A program made the translations under genes and the position numbers. A stretch of 64,000 bases of DNA from an uncultured Hormoscilla sp. (GTDB taxonomy: Bacteria > Cyanobacteriota > Cyanobacteriia > Cyanobacteriales > Desertifilaceae), in the NCBI GenBank assembly GCA_963921275.4, contig OZ001293.3, positions 1,440,001 to 1,504,000 on the forward strand, given 5' to 3'. A model generated the notes under the pieces. That model was not told where the DNA came from, did no database searches, and saw only the letters and a list, made by a program, of their open reading frames with translations. How positions within the stretch are numbered: position 1 is the stretch's first letter; every line of letters begins with the position of its first letter. Shown here one piece after another: positions 10,200 through 22,551 of the stretch.

Positions 10200-11582
10200 G
10201 AGAATCGCTTGAGCTAGAATTCAAGTATCAGCTATGTCATGCAAGCGTCGTAACCCTTGCCAAATAGTTTTCACCCCTGGTTCACCATCCCGTTTTCGTC
10301 CTAAAAAACCACCTAATTTAGCAATCCAATGAATACAAGTCTTTATTGTTGGCGTCGCCTCTAGTGGTGTCGAAGTTTTATTTATCGTGCAGTAAAGAGC
10401 TTGCTACTCATGGGTTTCTAAAATACTATCTGCTGGGGCCTCCGGGTTGTAACGAGCTTCATAAGTAAGCCACAATAATCGCCATGCCACGATTGTATAA
10501 GTGGCTAAAGCCCTTTCAATGCGATCTGTTGTTTCTAGTTGTAGTTGTTCTTTTCGACAACCACTTTTTAGGACATAATGATAACGTTCAATTAACCAAC
10601 GATAGCTATACCAACGCAGGCACCACGTCATCAAAGCCAGTAATCGTCAGCGTCGTTAACAACAACCAGCTAACCCGGTCAACTCCAGAAGGTGGATGCT
10701 CTTCTTCTGCCAGAATTACTTGTATTTTAATTGGCTTTAATGATTTGTAGTGAATATGTGTTTTGGGTGGTTGAATCTCTACCGAAGTGCTACCCAGGGT
10801 TAAGGTTGCTTCGCGAGCCTTTCTCTCGGGATTTTTTGATAATTCTATCGTCACAACTGCTACGGGAGAAACTTTGTAGATAGCTGATTCTAATTTCTCT
10901 ACTTCCTCTGAATCAACTGATTTTACAGAACGGTTCTGATAAGCGCGAATTAGAAGCATGCTCTGAATTCTCAGAGCGAGGCAAGGCCAAAAAATCATAA
11001 ATATCTGCCTCCCGATCCGCCACTGTCACCACTGTAACATCTGATGGTATCACTGCTTCCGTTGCCGATAGCGAGTCCAGCCACCGCTGGCTTTCTTTAT
11101 CTTTTGTTTCTATGAATCTGTCGAGAATGCTTCTTGCCAATATCAGAAATATCCCGTGCCCTGCTGATTTAACACTCAAGGGCGGTACTCCTGTCCCACT
11201 GGTACAAAAAACCGAGTGAACTTTTAGTTCTCGACTGGTTCTACAATTCCATTTGCCCCATTCCTTTTTTACTGGGATGGTGCGTAAAATTTAGTTCGGT
11301 GGTGTCCTGAATTGCTAAAATCGTTTCATGTTGTTTGACTCGGGAGAGCGTACTTTGTTGGTGGCAATCGCGAATCGCTTCCGCTTGAATCTGTGGATTT
11401 GCCCAAAAGTCATTTGTGCTTGGGTCCCTGCCCAATCTCCACAAGCTTGTGGTACCGTAGCATTGGGTTGTTCTGCTAAATCTGATACAATTTTTACCAG
11501 TATGAATGTGGCGACGGCGATCGCCCAAATCAGCAGATTTTAGTTCTTCTGCGGCCCAAGACTTTATATTTTTCTGTCCATG
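10200..11582 (-). pseudogene. IS4-family transposase, frameshifted
   Basis: WAAEELKSADLGDRRR, IQDTTEL, KESQRWL, VADREADIY, WLLLTT, YSYRWLIERYHYVLKSG motifs spread over several frames. Confidence 0.9.
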
Positions 11583-11599
11583 GATAATTTTTGCTCTTG

Positions 11600-12497
11600 G
11601 TTGGGGTCGAGCTGGTACTCGCGTACTAACCCTCCCTTTCGGAACCTGAAGAGCGACTTTCACCGCACACGGCTACTGGTTGGTAAGCCCTTGTCACGAG
11701 TAGGATTACTAAGGGTTACCCCTATTGTCCCTTATTCCCTGAAATTTTGCCCCTTCATGGTCAGTCAATGGACTATTCTTTGTACCTAACTCCGGAAGGT
11801 TCGCGGGGGATAACTAGAAACCACTACAACCGCTCTTTACTAACATTTTACCGTATCTTGGGGCTCTACATTTTTACCCGGTTAGGATTTTAATCCATCA
11901 TCACTACCTAGGATTCCTCCTGATCTAGCACGTTCAGAGGGCTACTACCTCCGAGAACTTCTTACCATATCCGTCCTACGTCTGCATATCCTAAGCATTA
12001 CCCCAGGCATTTGCTTCTTAGGACATCCCTCCCCACGTGACCATTCGCTTCACATCTAACTTGTCCAAACTGGACAGAATCACGGGAGTTACTTCGTTCC
12101 CTGGTATCATTTCACGAGGCTTTTAGGTTTCTCCTATATACCGGCAGTTATTTCGAGTACGATATCAATGAAGCACAAACATTGACACGCTAACTGCTTC
12201 CCTTTTGGGCCAGCGTTACAGCCCTTTTCGCTGGTTTGTATTCACGATACTTACAGAGATTCGCTTGTTCTAACCATGAGCCTCTTTCCTAGCGGAGTCG
12301 CTCCTTTGGGCTAGGTGCTATCCTTCATTTAAGTCCTCGCTTGGCACCACGGCGATGTGGCTCCGCAGCACCTCCGACCGGTGTCACCCCCGTACCTGGG
12401 GGAGGGGAATTTAACCCCCATGATTACCAGAGTTATCTGGCAAATGAAACCAGATCAGACTTTCACCATTACTGGTTTACGTCAGAACGAATCGCAC
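11600..12497 (-). mobile_element. ORF-less group II intron (IIB-like), copy 1
   Basis: 5' GUGCG; D1 closing stem UUCGUUC/GAACGAA; D5-like AGCCGUGUGCGGUGAAAGUCGCUCUUCAGGUU; D6 with bulged A 8 nt from the 3' AC; no RT ORF; boundaries +/-1. Confidence 0.85.
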
Positions 12498-13057
12498 CGT
12501 GATCTCTACAATATTAGCAACGCCGGAAGCAAGAGTCGTTTTATTTAATCATTATTTTACTTTTTAGCACTGGCGAGGGTTCCGACAGCGCGTAGCGCAT
12601 TTCGTATCGGACTATATATTAACTTAGTGGAAGTATATTGTTAACTTTTTTGAAGCAATTGTACTCAAATCAAGACGGTGTAAGGATTTCAGATTGTTAA
12701 GAAATATGTGAGTAAAGCATAGCTTTGAAAGGGGGGCTATTCTTTCGTCCCCTTTCAAAGGGGGATTTAGGGGGATTTTTCTGTACCTCACTAGGATGAA
12801 AACCGCTATATAGGTCAGAGATAATGTCCGCACCCGATCTGCCTGAGAGCAACAGGGTGGCCCGCCAAGAAACTTATGGACTACCGGTAGTGGCACATAG
12901 CAAGGACTAAAGTCCTTACTACAAACCGTCGCCAATGTTTAAGTTTTGTTAATTTTTCTTTTATTCACCCCGAAAGTAGGAGAAACTGTAAATATGGATA
13001 CAGAACAAAGTTATGAGAGGGTGAAATGGACCGCTATTGGACAAGAGGTGATTCATC

Positions 13058-13471
13058 ATGAAATTGTCTTATCGTGGTATCTACTACCAAGATGAGCCGA
13101 TCGCAAGGGAGATGAGCGAGGAGGTTCCTGGTGAGTACCGGGGTCAAGATTGCCAATTATGGCGCTATCCCAGGCACGTGCCGGTACAAAAAAAGCAAGG
13201 GCCGATCGATCTGAAATGTCGCGGTATTGCTTATAGCACCCACCAAACGGCGGAACCTGAGTTTGCCGCTCTCAATGTTAAACCGGTAGTGAGTGAAAGA
13301 GATACTCTCATGTCAACAGCAAAATCCCGTCACAGCGTCAAGCAAGAAGTCGCCAAAGTGCATCGCGCCAATATTCTCGAAAATCTGGAACATCGGTTAC
13401 AGGTTGCCAGATCCAGAGGGGACCAAGAGTTGGTCCGTCAGCTGGAGAAGGAAAAAGAACAAATTTCTTAA
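13058..13471 (+). CDS. DUF4278-domain protein
   Basis: MKLSYRGIYY, repeated YRG motifs, C-terminal LEHRLQVARSRGDQELVRQLEKE. Confidence 0.8.
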   Translation: MKLSYRGIYYQDEPIAREMSEEVPGEYRGQDCQLWRYPRHVPVQKKQGPIDLKCRGIAYSTHQTAEPEFAALNVKPVVSERDTLMSTAKSRHSVKQEVAKVHRANILENLEHRLQVARSRGDQELVRQLEKEKEQIS

Positions 13472-13789
13472 CCCATCCAGGGTGAACTATTTGACTGGTT
13501 CCCAGCCTCAGACTGGAAACGACGGTGGGAGCATCTCAATGCAAGAATTAAGAAACCCGGTTTTTCCTATACGCAGTGCCGCACGTTGCGCGTAAGGCAC
13601 GTTGCGCAGGCGCTAAAAACCGGGTTTCTGGGTCGGGCGCAGCCGGGTCGGGCGCAGCCGGGGCACTGGTGAATTGGTTGTTTTCTCTGGTGCGGGTTCC
13701 GACGGCAGCGGTGGATCTGCCCCTTCTTCAGACTACAAACGGTCCTTACTACAAACGGCAAGGACTAAAGTCCTTACTACAAACGGCAG

Positions 13790-14250
13790 CGAGTTTGTCT
13801 TGGATGGGACTGACTGCAACCAGGTTCTAGAACAGGTGCTGAGCAATTTACTAGGGGCGATCGCCTCTAGTAATGCTATAATCACCTATGAAAATCTGCC
13901 CACAGTCATGGCCAATGAATGGCAACTAGCACAGCTATTCCCAAACCTAATTGCCAATGGGATTAAATATAGCCGCCCCGAATCAGCGCGAAGGAGTGAA
14001 TATTTCCGTAGAAATGAGAGACAAATTAAGTGAATGGCTGGCATTCATGATAATGGCATTGGCATAGAATCAGAACATTTTGAAAGCATCTTTGATATTT
14101 TCCAACCTCTGCACAATGCCGAGGAATATTCAGGCACTGGGATTGGTTTAGCCATCTGTAAGAAGATTGTTGAGGCTCACCAGCATCTGGGTATAATCTG
14201 AGTTGGGTGTCTGCACTAGCTTTTACTTTACTATTCCTGAGTCATGTTTG
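13790..14250 (+). pseudogene. Sensor histidine kinase C-terminal (HATPase) remnant
   Basis: [46 protein letters not shown]. Confidence 0.75.
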
Positions 14251-14316
14251 TAGACAGTTTACTTGACTATTAGATCGTAAAAAATCTGCTATTTTCCAGT
14301 TATAACGGAGTATAAA

Positions 14317-14954
14317 ATGCTAGTAGAAGTCAAACAAGTAACCGTACCGCCAGGACAGCGAGTGCTGCTCAAAGATATCAGCTGGCAAGAGTTTGAAGCA
14401 ATTTTAGAGGATTTAGGAGAACATCGCGGATCTAGAGTCGCTTATGATAACGGCACCTTGGAAATCATGACACCATTACCTGAACACGAAAGCGGAAAAT
14501 AAATTATTGGCGACTTAGTAAAAGCCCTTTTGGAAGAACTAGACATTGAATTTTGGTGTCTAGGTTCTACAACTTTCAAAAATCAATTGATGCAGCAAGG
14601 TATAGAACCGGACAACTGTTTTTACATTTAAAATGAGGCAGCAGTACGCGGCAAGGATCGCTTAGACTTGACAAAAGACCCCCCACCAGATTTGGCTTTA
14701 GAAATTGACGTGACTTCTCGTACCCATCCCAGTATATACGAGAAATTGGGAGTCTCAGAACTTTGGCGCTTCGAGAAAGGGAAGTTGAAAATTAATGTGC
14801 TGCAAAAAGGTCAGTATGTAGAATCAGATATTAGCCCTCATTTCTGAATTTGCCAGTAAAATAGGTGATACCGCAATACCTCAATCAGTGTAAGATTCAG
14901 GGAAGGAATAAGACGATGAAAGCTTTTCGCGCTTGGGTGAGAGCACAAATTTAA
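14317..14954 (+). pseudogene. Uma2 family endonuclease pseudogene
   Basis: ISWQEFEAIL...LEIMTPLPEHE, EPDNCFY, PPDLALEID; several in-frame stops. Confidence 0.85.
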
Positions 14955-15005
14955 GCGCGGGTTTACAGGGGTTTAGGAAGGCGATAAAAACCGCACCAAG
15001 TCCCT

Positions 15006-15515
15006 TTAATTGCTCTCAGGTAAATCTGACGGAAGATAAGACAAACTTGCCCCTTTGCCCACCTTGAGGACCATCCGATCCGGTGTGAATAACTCGTAGT
15101 ATGGTAAATCGGAATCATCCTGTTCATTTGGGAAAAGCTTTAATTGACAACCATTGCTGAATTCTACAGTCAAACCTAGTTCTGTGCTGATTTCAAAAGC
15201 AGTTATCCTAGTTCCCTCTATCACATGAATTTCGTCTCGCATTTCTGGTAAAGACTGGGAACTGAAAATCATTTCTCCCTTGCACTCTAGCTGCCATTCT
15301 GTTATCATAGTTCCTAATATCCAGGATCCTTTCTCTTTACCCACCATAGATTTTTGCGAGTAAGGAATTCTGGCTCCAGCATGAAGCACTAGCTCATCTC
15401 CATAACTCATTCTTGCTCTCCAGCAAGTTTCCCCCACAATCAATTGTGTTATCTCTTTCACTCCCTCTAAATCATTAAATCTTGTTCTTCTCTGGACTTT
15501 AACTGGTATACTCAT
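15006..15515 (-). CDS. Hypothetical protein (immunity-protein-like)
   Basis: 169-aa ORF whose start overlaps the end of an upstream small broken ORF. Confidence 0.6.
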   Translation of the reverse strand: MSIPVKVQRRTRFNDLEGVKEITQLIVGETCWRARMSYGDELVLHAGARIPYSQKSMVGKEKGSWILGTMITEWQLECKGEMIFSSQSLPEMRDEIHVIEGTRITAFEISTELGLTVEFSNGCQLKLFPNEQDDSDLPYYELFTPDRMVLKVGKGASLSYLPSDLPESN

Positions 15516-15711
15516 TACTTGCCAATCCTAAAAAAATCCTTGCCTTTTGTCGTAGTTCTTGGTATGTAAAGTCCCCCCGTTCATTCTTGGTTCCTCTATT
15601 CCCAGTAGCTTTCTCATCCTCCAAGAACTCTCCAAATTCTCTTCTTTCTTCTGATCTCATGTCAAATTCTTTAGCAATGTTATTAACTTGCTTGATATCT
15701 TCCTTACTAAC
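15498..15711 (-). pseudogene. Small frameshifted ORF resembling a polymorphic-toxin C-terminal domain
   Basis: GAGGAGG RBS, then KEDIKQVNNIAKEFDMRSEERREFGEFLEDEKATGNRGTKNERG / FTYQELRQKAR with a frameshift in a G-run near 15574-15578. Confidence 0.4.
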
Positions 15712-15761
15712 TGTCCTGCCTCCTCAATACTTCAATACCATTATTATCATACCAGAGCAGC

Positions 15762-15866
15762 ACTGTCGCAACCGGCAATCGCTGTGCCGCAGCCAGCAAC
15801 CATTGTGTCGCAACCGGCAATCGCTGTGCCGCAGCCAGCAACCATTGTGTCGCAACCGGCAACCGC
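15762..15866. repeat. 21/42-nt tandem repeat
   Basis: TGTCGCAACCGGCAATCGCTGTGCCGCAGCCAGCAACCATTG, about 2.5 copies. Confidence 0.85.
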
Positions 15867-16008
15867 TGGGCCGCATTGAGCAAAGCTAGAGTACCAGGGA
15901 GCATCGATGACGCAAGCAAATATATCTGTAGGGGCGGGCGAAGCACTCTGGCAGTATATCTAGGAATAACATGATAAGCGGTTTGACAGAATGCTAGCGA
16001 GGTTGGAA

Positions 16009-16082
16009 CCTCTCGGTTGACGTTTTAAACCTCTCGGTTGACGTTTAAGCCTCTCGGTTGACGTTTTAAGCCTCCCGGTTGG
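16009..16082. repeat. 20-21-nt tandem repeat, 4 copies
   Basis: CCTCTCGGTTGACGTTTTAA units. Confidence 0.85.
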
Positions 16083-16241
16083 CCCCCAGGGCTGTTGCAT
16101 TCTTCCCGGCCACCCACGCGAGGATGGTTTCATTAGTTTAGTTTCCGCAGAATTTTGCCCAAATCCTGGGTCAGTTGATCGAGATATGAGTTACAATAAG
16201 CGATCGCAAGCCCAATCCTGGTATTATAGTTGGAGGTGTGA

Positions 16242-16541
16242 TTGTCAAAGTTTATATTGAAGGTTCTCTGGCTGGACTCGAACGTCGCCATTGCTGTAGA
16301 TCAAGTGGTGGGCAAGGGGCTTAGCCCTTTGACAAAGTACTTTTTCTGGCCCCGGAACGATGCCTGGGAAGAGCTGAAAAATGAGCTGGAGGCCAAAAAC
16401 TGGATCGCCGAGACCGATCGCATTGCCTTGCTCAATCAAGCCACAGAAGTGATTAACTACTGGCAAGAAGAAGGTAGAAAGTGTCCCATGTCTGAAGCGA
16501 TGGGTAAATTTCCAGAGGTTGCTTTTACTGGTAGCAGTTAG
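16242..16541 (+). CDS. ycf65: 30S ribosomal protein PSRP-3 / Ycf65
   Basis: [18 protein letters not shown]...[18 protein letters not shown]. Confidence 0.92.
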
Positions 16542-16644
16542 ACTTTAAGCCTACTTCCCCCGATCGCAAGACTCCTCCGACAAGCTGTGGAGGAGTCTAA
16601 GTTTCTGTATGTACTGACCAGCGCCCGTCATGCATAACGCAGGC

Positions 16645-17061
16645 TTAGATTTGCACCATGCCACCAGCAGCTTGGTAACGAGCCCGGGCCCGCTTCAGGG
16701 CCTGAGTCGCCTGAATTTTATCTTGACGGTCTTCGCCAGCGTCAGCCGCCCTCAGGCGCTCTTCCGCTTCCGAGTAAGCAATGCGAGCCTCTTCTTTATC
16801 TATGCTATCGCCTCCCTCGGCTCCATTCACCAAAATGGTCACCTCATTGTTGTCCACTTCCGCAAACCCACCCATGAGGGCGATCGGCACCCATTCCTTT
16901 TCTGGGCGCACTTGCATCACACCAGTATCGAGAGCCGTTAACAGGGGAGCATGATTAGAGAGGATCCCCAGTTGACCAGTGATACTAGGTAAAATTACTT
17001 CCTGAGCTGTCGAATCCCAGACCGTTTTGTCTGGAGCTATTACCCGAACGGTTAAAGTCAT
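16645..17061 (-). CDS. atpC: ATP synthase F1 epsilon subunit
   Basis: [16 protein letters not shown]...[13 protein letters not shown]; lies downstream of the beta subunit. Confidence 0.97.
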
Positions 17062-17106
17062 TCGTCCTTTGTCCTTTGTTAATAATCCCATCCTTCGATC
17101 CCATCG

Positions 17107-17261
17107 TTCGTAGTAAGCACTTTAGTCCTTACGCGAGGGAAGCACTAAAGTGCTTACTACAAACCCAAGGGAAGCACTTTAGTGCTTACTACAAACCCAA
17201 AGGAAGCACTAAAGTGCTTACTACAAACCCGAGGGAAGCACTTTAGTGCTTACTACAAACC
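17107..17261. repeat. Tandem array of 32-nt palindromic REP-like units between atpD and atpC
   Basis: GGAAGCACT(AA/TT)AGTGCTTACTACAAACCC x4 plus one inverted partial copy. Confidence 0.9.
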
Positions 17262-17262
17262 A

Positions 17263-18729
<1,467 letters not shown>

Positions 18730-18980
18730 TCAGTTATTAGGTGACTGGCGGACAGTCTTAATTTATGCTTAAATTGCCATCTTTCAGATTATCACCGAAA
18801 AGGATCGACTCAGACTTTTTTCCTCTCAATGTCACCTGTCCCTGGGCCGTTGGCCGTTCGATCCTGGTGTGTTTAGGGTTTGAGTGGTGGGCGGTGCTTT
18901 AGAGTTTGAGTGGTGGGCGGTGCCTGGTGGGCAGTGCCCTACAGGTATAATCGCGGTAAATGCAGCTGCCTACCATCTGA

Positions 18981-20321
18981 TTGAGCATGAGAGTAGTCTC
19001 ACGTACTTCAAACAATCTGCGTCAACCGCCCCCCCTATTTACCAAGCCCTCCTGGATGTTCTGGAGTTCCTTGTTGATCTTGACTACCCTATTATCGGCA
19101 TCGATGGGAGCATTTGTAGCATTGCTTGTTCCCGACAGCCTGACCAGTATTCCTCGGACGGTGTCGGGCCGATCACTCGGACATCTGTGGCGTCACGGCT
19201 TTCAATACCGATTAACCCGACCCGTGCATATCTTAATTATGGGCATCGATCGGGTGCCTGGGACAAGAGAAAATTCTCCGGAGAGCTTTTCTGGCCGCAG
19301 CGACACCCTGCTGGTGCTGCGAGTCGATCCTAACGATAATTCTCTGAGCATGCTTTCTCTGCCCCGAGACACCCAGGTGTACGTCCCGGCCCTGGGTTGG
19401 CAGAAGCTTTCTCATGTTAATCCTTTAGGTGGTCCAGATTTAACTGTCAAGGCAGTCAGTAACACTCTTAACGACCTGCCCATTGACCGCTATATCCGAG
19501 TTAGCACCGGTGCCTTTCGGGAGTTGGTGGATCTGGTGGATGGGGTGGAGGTGTTTGTCGATCGCCCGATGTATTATGTGGACTACACCCAGGGGTTAAA
19601 AATCGATCTGCTACCCGGATGGCAAACCCTGAATGGCAAGCAGGCGTCCGATTTTGCCCGCTTCCGCGCCGATGAGTTAGGGGATATCGGCAGGGTGCAG
19701 CGCCAGCAAGCTGTCATCAAAGCTTTGCGCCAGCGTCTGAACAGTCCTTCTGTGTTGCCCCGTTTGCCCCAAGTGATTCGGGTCGTGCACAAGCATATCG
19801 ATACTAATATTAGTTCCCAAGAAATACGAGCGCTAGTGAGTCTCGCTTTGCAAATCGAACCAGAGCATTTTAAGCAGGTAATGCTGCCCGGTCGTTATAG
19901 TTATCCCGGAGAGTTCCCTACTAGCTACTGGGTGCTCGACCCCAGAGGGCGCGATCGGGTGTTGCGGGAATATTTCCACATGTACTGGATGGGCAATGCT
20001 TGGAGTGACTATTCCGGTACTAGCGTCTCCACCGGGCGATCGCCTAAATCTCTGAGGATTGCGATTCAAAACGCTACAGGCCAACCCAACATAGCCCGTC
20101 AACTAGCCCAGGAGCTGCAAAAACAGGGTTTTTATAATTTGTACTTAGTTTCCGATTGGTCAGTGGAGGTACTTTATACCCAGATTATCGTGCAAAAAGG
20201 TGACCTAGTAGGAGCAAAATACCTGAAAAGAGTTTTAGACAAGGGTAAAATTGAAGCCAGTTCAACAGGACATGTCTACTCAGACTTAACAATTAGGATC
20301 GGTAAAGACTGGCTCAAATAA
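18981..20321 (+). CDS. LCP (LytR-CpsA-Psr) family protein with LytR C-terminal domain
   Basis: GRSDTLL, SLPRDT, ARFR..DIGRVQRQQ, IQNATG...DLTIRIGKD. Confidence 0.92.
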   Translation: MSMRVVSRTSNNLRQPPPLFTKPSWMFWSSLLILTTLLSASMGAFVALLVPDSLTSIPRTVSGRSLGHLWRHGFQYRLTRPVHILIMGIDRVPGTRENSPESFSGRSDTLLVLRVDPNDNSLSMLSLPRDTQVYVPALGWQKLSHVNPLGGPDLTVKAVSNTLNDLPIDRYIRVSTGAFRELVDLVDGVEVFVDRPMYYVDYTQGLKIDLLPGWQTLNGKQASDFARFRADELGDIGRVQRQQAVIKALRQRLNSPSVLPRLPQVIRVVHKHIDTNISSQEIRALVSLALQIEPEHFKQVMLPGRYSYPGEFPTSYWVLDPRGRDRVLREYFHMYWMGNAWSDYSGTSVSTGRSPKSLRIAIQNATGQPNIARQLAQELQKQGFYNLYLVSDWSVEVLYTQIIVQKGDLVGAKYLKRVLDKGKIEASSTGHVYSDLTIRIGKDWLK

Positions 20322-20405
20322 TACTATTTTCTCGTTATCTCATCTACAAAGAGCGGCGAATCTCATCGGCTCGGTCCTCTGTGCAGCCGTATAGGTCATA
20401 AAATC

Positions 20406-22551
20406 TAGTGGTATGTCAAGTAAATAATGACGGATAAGGGAAGAGAACAAAGAGTGAGAAACTATGCCAGCCAAACGATATATAGTTTCCCTAATAGAAG
20501 AAGAACGCCAAAGTCTAGAAAAGCTAACTACAACAGGAAAAGCTGCGGCGAGGAAAATTAATCAGGTCGGGGTCGAGCTGTCCCTCGCGGGACAATCCTC
20601 CCATTCGGAACCTGAAGAGCGACTTTCACCGCACACGGCTACTGGTTGGTAAACCCTTGTCACGGGTAGGATTACTAGGGATTACTCCCGTTGTCCCTTG
20701 CCCTATGAAATATAGCCCCTTTATGGTCAGTCATGAACTAGTTGAGTACCTAACTCCGGAAGGTTTACGGGGGAGAACTAGAAAACCACTATGACCGTTC
20801 TTTACTAACAGGTGCCCGTATGGGGCCTCTAAATTTTTTACCCGGTTAGGATTTCAGTCCATCATTACTACCTAGTGTTGCCACTGGTTAAGCACGTTTA
20901 GAGGGCTACTATCTCCTAGAGCTTTTTACCATATCCGTCCTACGTCTGCATATCCACAGGCATTACCCCGGGCATTAGCTTCTTAGGACCTCCCTCCCCA
21001 CGCGGGCATGCGCTAGGCGCTGCGCGCACACTACGCGGACGCACATCTGACTTGTCCATCTGGACAGCACCGCTCTTGTCCGGAACGTTCCCTGGTATCA
21101 TTTCACGAGGCTTTTAGGTCTCCCCTATACACCGGCAGTCATTTCGGGTACGATATCAGTGACGTGCAACCACTGATACGCGGACTGCGTGCGCATTTTG
21201 CACCAAGCGTGTCAGCCTCTTTTCGCTTGTTTAAGATGACGATGCTTACAGGGATTCGCTTGCTCTAACCATGAGCCTCTTTCCGATCGCGCAGCGTGGC
21301 GCAGCCATGCGGCGTCGGTCTCTGGGCTGAGACCTTATCCTACATTTGTCCTCGGGAGGCACCACGGTAATGTTACTCCGCAGCACCTCACGCGGTCACC
21401 CCCGTACCTGGGGGAAGGGGAATTGAACCCCCATGATGACCAGAGTTGCTGGTATTAACCAGCCCGGCGATCGCCATATTTCAGACTTACGCCAAAACGA
21501 TTCGCACTGCTCGCATCTTACTTAAAGCCGATATTAATCAAACCGATGGAGGGTGGACAGATAGTGAAATTAGCCAAGCTTTGAACATTAGTACCAGAAC
21601 CATTGAAAGAGTTCGACAAAGGTTTGTAGAAGAGGGTTTAGAAAAAGCAATAACCCCCCGTCCCCACCCCTCATCTCAGTTACGGCGTATCGATGGAGAA
21701 GTCGAAGCTCATTTAATTGCATTAGCTTGCAGCCAAGCACCGACTGGGTATAGTCGTTGGACTTTATGACTCCTCGCTGATCAAATGGTAGCTTTAGGAT
21801 ATGTAGAAAGCCTTTCCCATGAAACGGTACGACAGGTATTAAAAAAAAACGAAATTAAACCTTGGTTTCAGGAATGTTGGATAATTACACCTCAAGAAAG
21901 TGCTGAATTTGTCTGTCAGATGGAAGAAGTTTTAGACCTGTACACCCGTGCTTATGATTCAGATTACCCTTTGGTTTGTTTTGATGAATGTTCCAAACAG
22001 TTAATTTCAGAAACGAGAACCCCCATTCCAGCAGAACCTGGGAAACCGGAACGTTTTGACTACGAATATCAGCGAAAGGGAGTCTGTAATCTGTTCATGT
22101 TTTTTGAACCTTTAACCACGGCACGTAGAAGTAACTGACCAACGGACTTCTTACGACTATGCTCACCAGATGAAGTATTTGGTTGATGAATGTTTTCCTC
22201 AAGCGAGGAAGATTCTCGTCGTTCAAGATCATCTTAATACTCATGTGAAAGCTTCTCTATACAAAGCCTTTAGCCCATCGGTAGCTCGTAGAATTCTGGA
22301 TAAGTTAGAATTTCATTACACTCCTAAACATGGCAGTTGGTTGAATATGGCGGAAATCGAGTTAAGTGTCTTACGCCGACAGTGTTTAGACCGAAGGATT
22401 TCCGAGAAGGAGTTTTTAAAAGAAGAAATAGCGGCTTGGGAAAAGCGTAGAAATGAAACCGCTTCGGTTGTAGATTGGCAATTTACCACCGAAGCAGCTC
22501 GAATTAAATTGAAGCAATTATATCCGTCAATTCAATTTTGACAAATCACTA
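20406..22551 (+). mobile_element. IS630-family element; transposase split by an intron and by stops
   Basis: Imperfect inverted repeats TAGTGGTATGTCAA..TGACGGATA / TATCCGTCAA..TTGACAAATCACTA; CTAG at both ends; CFDE, QDHLNTH, TPKHGSWLNMAEIE; A-run frameshift site at 21841. Confidence 0.92.
20566..21507 (-). mobile_element. ORF-less group II intron (IIB-like), copy 2, antisense within the IS630 transposase
   Basis: 5' GUGCG at 21507; D5 identical to copy 1; D6 ending GAC; colinear with copy 1; splits ...ARKIN / ARILLKAD. Confidence 0.87.

Follow-up and report, generated by a model that had tools for sequence, protein, structure and literature searches.

A large family of ORF-less group II introns in an uncultured Hormoscilla sp., very probably mobilised by proteins made elsewhere in the genome

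Introduction

Group II introns are thought to be ancestral to spliceosomal introns, and most bacteria hold few of them. How they reach high copy number is a standing question. In the closest described system, that of Thermosynechococcus elongatus (T. elongatus), which is also the best-studied bacterial case, introns that lack an open reading frame (ORF) were shown experimentally to be mobilised by the intron-encoded proteins of related introns, and the sections of that paper used here count 28 introns that make up 1.3% of the genome, 17 of them ORF-less and grouped in six families by their exon-binding sites (EBS; Mohr et al. 2010, PMC2882425). The highest load given in the corresponding sections of a survey of 1,790 representative genomes is 101 introns per genome (Miura et al. 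2022, PMC8919778). Here, we describe two ORF-less group II introns, copy 1 and copy 2, that are inserted in insertion sequence (IS) elements within a 64,000-nucleotide stretch of DNA from an uncultured Hormoscilla sp. (the window; positions 1,440,001 to 1,504,000 of contig OZ001293.3, assembly GCA_963921275.4, that is G000:C1:1440001-1504000, with window position 1 = 1440001), in a genome with about 400 intron cores, about 315 ORF-less.

Both introns are very probably non-autonomous, ORF-less, group IIB-type members of one large family that moves by RNA-guided retromobility, with a reverse transcriptase (RT) made elsewhere in the genome. Such a family is a natural system in which to ask how target specificity diversifies, how few proteins serve how many RNAs, and how far the ribozyme core (domain 5 and the 3' end) can degenerate while mobility persists.

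Results

Two related introns in two IS elements

The window contains two introns and their hosts at the following positions:

11599..12497, minus strand: copy 1, ORF-less group II intron of 899 nt, GUGCG...AACC, supported by pairwise alignment, empty paralogs and clustering
20565..21507, minus strand: copy 2, ORF-less group II intron of 943 nt, GUGCG...GACC, supported by pairwise alignment, empty paralogs and clustering
10404..11598, minus strand: host of copy 1 (3' side), a degenerate IS4-like repeat that runs in the direction of the intron
20464..22541, plus strand: host of copy 2, an IS630-like element with Pfam HTH_32, HTH_29, HTH_23 and DDE_3 matches and three empty paralogs

The original prediction described two colinear but diverged minus-strand elements of about 0.9 kb, and pairwise alignment bears this out: the copies are colinear at 85% mean column identity, and their likeness begins exactly at GTGCG and ends just past ...CCCCRAC, between unrelated flanks. 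Both start with GUGCG, in line with a GUGYG 5' end, as was first noted; the AC proposed as the 3' end is one nucleotide short. The comparison with empty IS alleles that had been suggested proved possible for both hosts: in uninterrupted paralogs of each, the 5' exon runs straight into the base that follows ...AACC in copy 1 and ...GACC in copy 2, so the true 3' ends read ...ACC and lie 1 nt further 3'. When 287 elements of the family were compared in this way, 83 had precise empty paralogous sites, and the longer end was found in 1354 of the 1362 empty-site flank pairs, with an offset of 0 in seven and of -4 in one. Two GC-rich inserts in the D1/D2 loops (D1 to D6 are the intron domains) of copy 2, at 21282-21311 and 20998-21041, are missing from copy 1; they belong to short repeats dispersed through the genome, where blastn-short gave 146 and 55 hits, and the motif TGCGCGCAGCGC occurs 243 times.

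Both hosts are IS elements, as first read. Copy 2 lies antisense to the IS630-like transposase gene and interrupts a His codon: the N-terminus of the transposase is encoded at 20464-20564, the reading continues at 21508-21769 with the HTH domains, and a DDE_3 fragment follows at 22170-22541. The uninterrupted paralog reads ...AARKINHARILLKAD... / ...KINHARILLKAD.... No splicing of copy 2 out of the transposase mRNA is possible. Copy 1 is inserted in sense near the 5' end of its IS4-like repeat, for which Pfam matches are weak (Tnp_DNA_bind at 18.4 bits, cut-off 24; DDE_Tnp_1 at 22 bits, cut-off 23); three uninterrupted paralogs of this host, at 85-99% identity, are contiguous across the site.

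A search of the whole window at gathering score gave no Rfam match. In E-value mode, Rfam Intron_gpII, which models D5-D6, matches the 3' ends of both copies, at 21.9 bits (copy 1) and 20.0 bits (copy 2) and thus below the threshold of 40, because the lower helix of D5 holds three non-standard pairs. The group-II-D1D4 models, also proposed as a check, left the window copies unmatched at E<=10 and produced only a match of 22 bits (E 0.78) in other family members. Rfam alone is therefore a weak identification, and group II identity rests on family-level evidence. Family members with a canonical D5 reach 44.4-47.0 bits on Intron_gpII, which places the family among bona fide group II introns.

A large and dispersed family

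A blastn search of the genome with the two copies returned 1245 high-scoring segment pairs, which merge into 729 regions; chaining of these gave 315 ORF-less elements, each about 830-1000 nt long, and left 162 regions unchained. The family amounts to 274,970 nt, or 3.9% of the genome, and 295 of the 315 copies start with GTGCG. At 95% identity it separates into about 55 clusters (137, 75, 16, 9, 8, 5, 5, 3, 3 copies etc.), and median pairwise identity is 99.6-99.8% in the subfamilies of 136, 75, 16 and 8 copies. The search for further copies and for an RT-encoding relative that the original prediction had called for thus yielded both, the latter as a related ORF-containing family described below.

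Copy 2 belongs to a subfamily of eight, with seven siblings at eight different sites in all, a median pairwise identity of 99.75% and a minimum of 98.6%; near-identical copies thus occupy different EBS-matched sites. Copy 1 is the sole member of its cluster, and the same behaviour would have to be extended to it from the rest of the family. Its nearest full-length relative is 81% identical, while its 5' half reaches 86-88% identity to members of other clusters, a pattern that hints at a mosaic. Copy 1 lacks a donor copy, though the paralogs of its host IS reach 99% identity.

Could most of the multiplication have taken place in DNA, with the copies carried along by IS elements, other introns or segmental duplications? 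Both window copies do lie within multi-copy IS elements, and 46 of 295 clean copies have a site in common with at least one other, up to nine of them at one site within repeated composite units. However, the 295 copies sit at 249 distinct sites, the paralogs of either host IS carry no intron, the flanks differ in all eight members of the copy 2 subfamily with only the intron-binding site (IBS) motifs in common, and flanks covary with the EBS loops across the family (see below). We consider passenger multiplication very improbable as the main route.

Target recognition by EBS-IBS pairing

The pairing elements of the two copies map as follows:

12172..12177, minus strand: copy 1 EBS1, UGUGCU (intron 321-326), in the loop of an 8-bp hairpin
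12236..12240, minus strand: copy 1 EBS2, UACAA (intron 258-262), pairing with exon UUGUA at -14..-10
12136..12136, minus strand: copy 1 EBS3, U362, pairing with A, the first 3'-exon base (window 11598)
12498..12511, minus strand: copy 1 IBS1 AUCACG (12503-12498) and IBS2 UUGUA (12511-12507)
21163..21168, minus strand: copy 2 EBS1, UGCACG (intron 340-345), 5/6 pairs with exon CGAGCA (21513-21508)
21232..21237, minus strand: copy 2 EBS2, AUCUUA (intron 271-276), 6/6 pairs with exon UAAGAU (21520-21515)

In an unbiased scan, each variable intron column was compared with flank positions -20..+8 over 41 subfamily consensuses, and only three clean antidiagonal signals emerged. Columns 325-330 pair with exon -1..-6 (EBS1/IBS1) with a mean of 5.27/6 against 2.68 (standard deviation 0.18) for shuffled labels, columns 259-262 with exon -10..-13 (EBS2/IBS2) with a mean of 3.51/4 against 1.88, and column 365 is complementary to the first true 3'-exon base (EBS3/IBS3) in 0.95 of the 41 subfamilies against 0.50. 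For each of the three, none of 2000 label shuffles attained the observed mean. The correlation between EBS1 and IBS1 among additional copies, whose absence had been named in advance as evidence against a retargeting lineage, therefore holds across all 41 subfamilies taken together. All eight pairs of the EBS1 hairpin show compensatory changes across subfamilies. EBS3 corresponds to one column of D1, some 35 nt downstream from EBS1, and this separation places the family in subgroup IIB.

The two EBS1 loops differ and each is complementary to its own 5' exon, as first proposed, with five of six pairs in either copy. The copy 1 exon was originally read as ..CACGG; its final G is the first intron base, and the true IBS1 is AUCACG. 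The EBS1 of copy 1 would pair at all six positions with AGCACG, the sequence of two of the three empty paralogs. At window 12502 (exon -5) the occupied site has T where these two have G, and since the G would restore a perfect 6-bp IBS1, the exon probably changed after insertion. In the copy 2 subfamily, the consensus target CGUGCA pairs with EBS1 at six of six positions.

Ribozyme structure and 3' ends

Because insertions and deletions made global RNAalifold unusable in D2-D4, folding was done by domain on subfamily representatives. Base pairs recovered in this way, and the corresponding features of copy 1, are:

D1, 36 sequences: 69 bp in 11 helices, 39 bp with compensatory changes
D2, 36 sequences: 8 bp, 5 bp with compensatory changes
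D4, 17 related lineages (the clade with both window copies): 49 bp, 25 bp with compensatory changes
D6, 36 sequences: 9 bp, 5 bp with compensatory changes
11681..11967, minus strand: copy 1 D4, structured and ORF-free (intron 531-817), closed by UGGUAAG/CUUACCA
11599..11637, minus strand: copy 1 D6 and 3' end, with bulged A891 (window 11607) as branch-point candidate and C899 as gamma'

Recognisable D1 to D6 had been claimed, and compensatory changes uphold this for D1, D2, D4 and D6. D3 is thinly supported, with one 4-bp helix by alifold, and the lower helix of D5 was left unpredicted owing to mismatched variants. In the clade of 17 lineages that includes both window copies, D4 is a homologous structured domain of about 290 nt, and its closing stem UGGUAAG/CUUACCA shows compensatory changes in six of seven pairs. 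An alternative closing helix, GUAGGA/UCCUAC, was rejected as it crosses the covariation-supported GGUAAG/CUUACC stem. The covariation first noticed in the upper stem of D6 (GUAC/GUAC in one copy, GUCCC/GGGAC in the other) extends to the family-level helix. An unpaired A in D6 sits 8 nt before the last intron base and is a candidate branch point, predicted at window 11607 in copy 1 and at 20573 in copy 2.

The last intron base (C or U) covaries with one J2/3 column, with 19 G-C and 19 A-U combinations and neither G-U nor A-C among 38 informative subfamilies, and these two bases form the gamma-gamma' contact. Group II introns usually end in AY. Most copies in this family end in CC or CU (AUCC in 134, GACU in 85, GACC in 47), and only the UAAU type (18 copies) fits the usual rule. 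This is a deviation within the family and no ground for excluding it from group II.

Mismatched domain 5

Domain 5 of both window copies departs from the canonical form:

11643..11674, minus strand: copy 1 D5 with AGC triad and GAAA loop, 3' strand UCUUCAGG, 5/8 lower-helix pairs
20609..20640, minus strand: copy 2 D5, with a mismatched lower helix as in copy 1, present in 8/8 subfamily copies

Both read AGCCGUGU...UC UUCAGGUU and retain the AGC triad, the upper helix and the GAAA loop, while the lower helix forms five of its eight pairs. The predicted stability of the hairpin is -7.2 kcal/mol (z -0.42), against -16.6 and -17.4 kcal/mol in canonical members, a predicted cost of about 9-10 kcal/mol. 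A different register, with a bulged G, U-A and G-C, was ruled out, since the GAAA loop would be lost and the other variant combinations would not be accommodated.

The mismatched D5 appears to be a chimera, with a 5' strand of one type (CCGUGU) and a 3' strand of another (UCUUCAGG), whose proper partner is CCUGGU. The matched pair of CCUGGU and UCUUCAGG occurs in one copy here and in one copy in each of two congeners. A motif census of the genome counted 409 D5-like motifs, of which 39 carry the exact mismatch of the window copies and about 11 more carry related mismatched combinations, so that about 12% of all D5s have a mismatched lower helix; among the congeners, one has two instances of this mismatched D5 and the other three gave none. 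Scanning one genome per species for the variant 3' strand gave 54 hits, of which 50 are chance matches in unrelated coding DNA and four lie in a D5-D6 context, all in records of Hormoscilla sp. On a tree built without D5-D6, the variant D5 is concentrated in one clade and yet patchy, and this patchiness suggests that D5 halves were exchanged between lineages.

What does the mismatch mean for mobility? Three subfamilies, of 8, 16 and 3 copies, consist entirely of variant-D5 members and have median identities of 99.25-99.75%. They are as young as the canonical subfamilies of 136 and 75 copies, and mobility evidently went on with a mismatched D5. Possibly such introns no longer depend on a D5 of their own and are rescued in trans, either through the shared protein or through RNA that contains a D5, supplied by the roughly 350 canonical introns in the same cell. 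We regard this as unlikely; if true, a bacterium would here have one splicing apparatus in common for many degenerate introns.

Source of the reverse transcriptase and nested introns

Reverse transcriptases that could act on these RNAs are encoded in the same genome, which has 75 GIIM and 93 RVT_1 matches and at least 14 uninterrupted RT/maturase/HNH ORFs. The protein of the ORF-containing introns combines RVT_N, RVT_1, GIIM and HNH and scores 356 bits on TIGR04416 (cut-off 300). Its best solved relative is chain 6me0_C (E 1.4e-113), which we take to be the T. elongatus intron ribonucleoprotein. A source of RT in trans thus exists, and its action on the ORF-less RNAs would follow by analogy. 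The ORF-containing introns are about 2.4 kb long and run from GUGCG to UUUAAU. Their 5' 620 nt are about 68% identical to copy 1 over 571 aligned positions, covering D1-D3 and the start of D4, which makes them relatives and not recent parents. Their D5-D6 lies within the last ~70 nt of the RT frame, with the stop codon in D6, and scores 58.8 bits in Rfam.

L039:2138-2214 and L041:2138-2214 (G000:C1 ~1147221-1147297 and its paralog): D5-D6 within the RT frame
G000:C1:1144148-1145089, L039:2215-2330 and composites such as C1:1057258-1060631: nested-intron loci

Nesting occurs both ways: an ORF-containing intron has a copy 2 sibling inserted in its D1, and some ORF-less introns hold an ORF-containing one in D4. 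A composite made of a truncated RT intron with two ORF-less inserts occurs about eight times.

This nesting bears on another explanation, in which RT would act in cis: ORF-less master copies that carry an ORF-containing intron in D4, as a twintron, would alone drive the spread. At two loci an ORF-containing intron indeed ends 37 nt upstream of D5 of an outer ORF-less intron. However, only these two composites were seen, neither in the subfamily of copy 1 nor in that of copy 2, and hundreds of dispersed copies are ORF-free, so that each of them, if it came from a composite, would require exact loss of the inner intron. Supply in cis therefore seems improbable.

The ORF-less copies themselves hold no trace of an RT. 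As the original prediction had it for the two window copies, no RT ORF is present, and a tblastn search of all 315 copies with the genome's own intron RT gave no hit at E<=10; the median length of the longest stop-to-stop frame is 68 aa. Together with the homologous, covarying D4, this lack of any RT remnant indicates that the ORF-less state is older than the divergence of target specificities. The same observations speak to whether the two introns are decayed relics, that is, independent internal-deletion derivatives of ORF-containing introns that are no longer mobile. A weakened D5 that scores below the Rfam threshold in both copies would suit relics, as would the isolation of copy 1 in its subfamily. 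Independent deletion, the outcome that had been singled out as fatal to a common ORF-less lineage, was not seen, given that RT remnants are missing throughout and that 17 lineages share a homologous D4 backed by covariation. Identity to the nearest ORF-containing introns is only about 68%, EBS and IBS covary across 41 lineages, and the seven near-identical siblings of copy 2 sit at different matched sites. Decay is thus largely refuted and extremely improbable. The proposal of an ORF-less lineage that retargeted and spread is supported, and the copy 2 subfamily attests recent mobility in the ORF-less state.

Sequencing runs and points that weigh against mobility

The sequencing data comprise one RNA run, as contigs only, and three DNA or unlabelled runs; no exon junction that splicing would account for was seen in them, which gives no verdict on expression or splicing. 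One contig from the probable source run, a DNA or unlabelled one, skips exactly 899 nt, from 11598 to 12498, which the empty paralogs explain. Among contigs of related strains, none bridges either insertion site.

Several observations count against retromobility of the two window copies with RT supplied in trans. No exon junction produced by splicing was found in the one RNA run, whose contigs came only from other family members. With five of eight lower-helix pairs and the low predicted stability of D5, the present catalytic competence of both copies is uncertain. For copy 1 the assembly offers no near-identical donor, the closest full-length match being the relative at 81%. The site of copy 2 is mismatched at IBS1 -4 and at IBS3, so that it looks like an ectopic rather than a homing insertion. 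Finally, the 46 copies that share a site probably multiplied as passengers of larger composite repeats.

Neighbourhood

The surroundings in the window are ordinary chromosome, with atpD and atpC (ATP synthase beta and epsilon) and a LytR-family gene, and neither further family copies nor an RT gene were found within the 64 kb. Between the ATP synthase beta and epsilon genes, at 17136-17261, lies a tandem array of a 32-nt unit with a palindrome (3.9 copies, 90% matches), which gave spurious microRNA-like Rfam matches.

Discussion

How might ORF-less introns of this family move? An intron copy would first be transcribed, and the RT/maturase/HNH protein from an ORF-containing intron could then bind the RNA and aid splicing. 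The excised RNA-protein particle would reverse-splice into DNA wherever EBS1, EBS2 and EBS3 of domain 1 pair with the corresponding IBSs, at -1..-6 for IBS1, about -8..-14 for IBS2 and +1 for IBS3, a pairing that covariation shows. By the known pathway, HNH would nick the other strand and the RT would copy the intron into DNA. Mutations in the EBS loops would have split the family into at least 41 lineages, each with a target of its own. The two window copies would represent two such lineages, copy 1 having entered an IS4-like and copy 2 an IS630-like element where the exons suit the loops of the copy.

The family is found in all four congeners, and only faint matches occur in five of 36 other genomes searched. 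Intron_gpII matches number at least 137 here and at least 134, 108 and 131 in three congeners; there are two in the fourth congener, a fragmented assembly of 230 contigs, 0-16 in 16 other relatives, and 0-5 in other genera of the family. A full-text literature search for 'Hormoscilla' with 'group II intron' found no paper, and the main text of the 2019 comparative genomics of Hormoscilla (PMC6520454) contains none of the words 'intron', 'reverse transcriptase' and 'transposase'. Surveys that apply the Rfam threshold undercount families of this sort.

The kind of selfish RNA element described here is already known from the biology of T. elongatus; what is notable is the roughly tenfold scale, the non-AY ends and the lineages that are still mobile with a mismatched D5. 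The likeness to the group IIB1 introns TeI3 (ORF-less) and TeI4 (ORF-containing) of T. elongatus, as given in the sections of that paper used here, covers several points: the host is a cyanobacterium, ORF-less introns outnumber ORF-containing ones, each family has its own diverged EBS1, EBS2 and EBS3 with matching sites, insertions lie in IS elements and in other introns (twintrons), and the protein is of the RT/X/D/En type (PMC2882425). There are also differences. T. elongatus has 17 ORF-less copies in six families, and these retain both ORF termini at one shared breakpoint (PMC2882425); here the ORF-less copies number about 315, fall into about 55 subfamilies and fill 3.9% of the genome, ORF remnants are absent, and the ORF-less RNAs are only about 68% identical to the ORF-containing introns. 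Most ends here are CC or CU rather than AY, about 12% of D5s are mismatched, and mobilisation in trans, demonstrated in T. elongatus (PMC2882425), is proposed here from comparison.

Two further cyanobacteria resemble this genome in part. Arthrospira platensis is likewise filamentous with an exceptional intron load, mostly of chloroplast-like types; the survey maximum was 101 introns per genome, against about 400 D5 motifs in this genome, and the pipeline of that survey, as outlined in the sections used here, relied on the Rfam D5-D6 model and would miss copies at 20-22 bits such as the two in the window (PMC8919778). Trichodesmium erythraeum also has nested group II introns, according to the parts of the report used here (Pfreundt and Hess 2015, PMC4649490), in far fewer copies, 24 per chromosome as listed by Miura et al. 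(PMC8919778).

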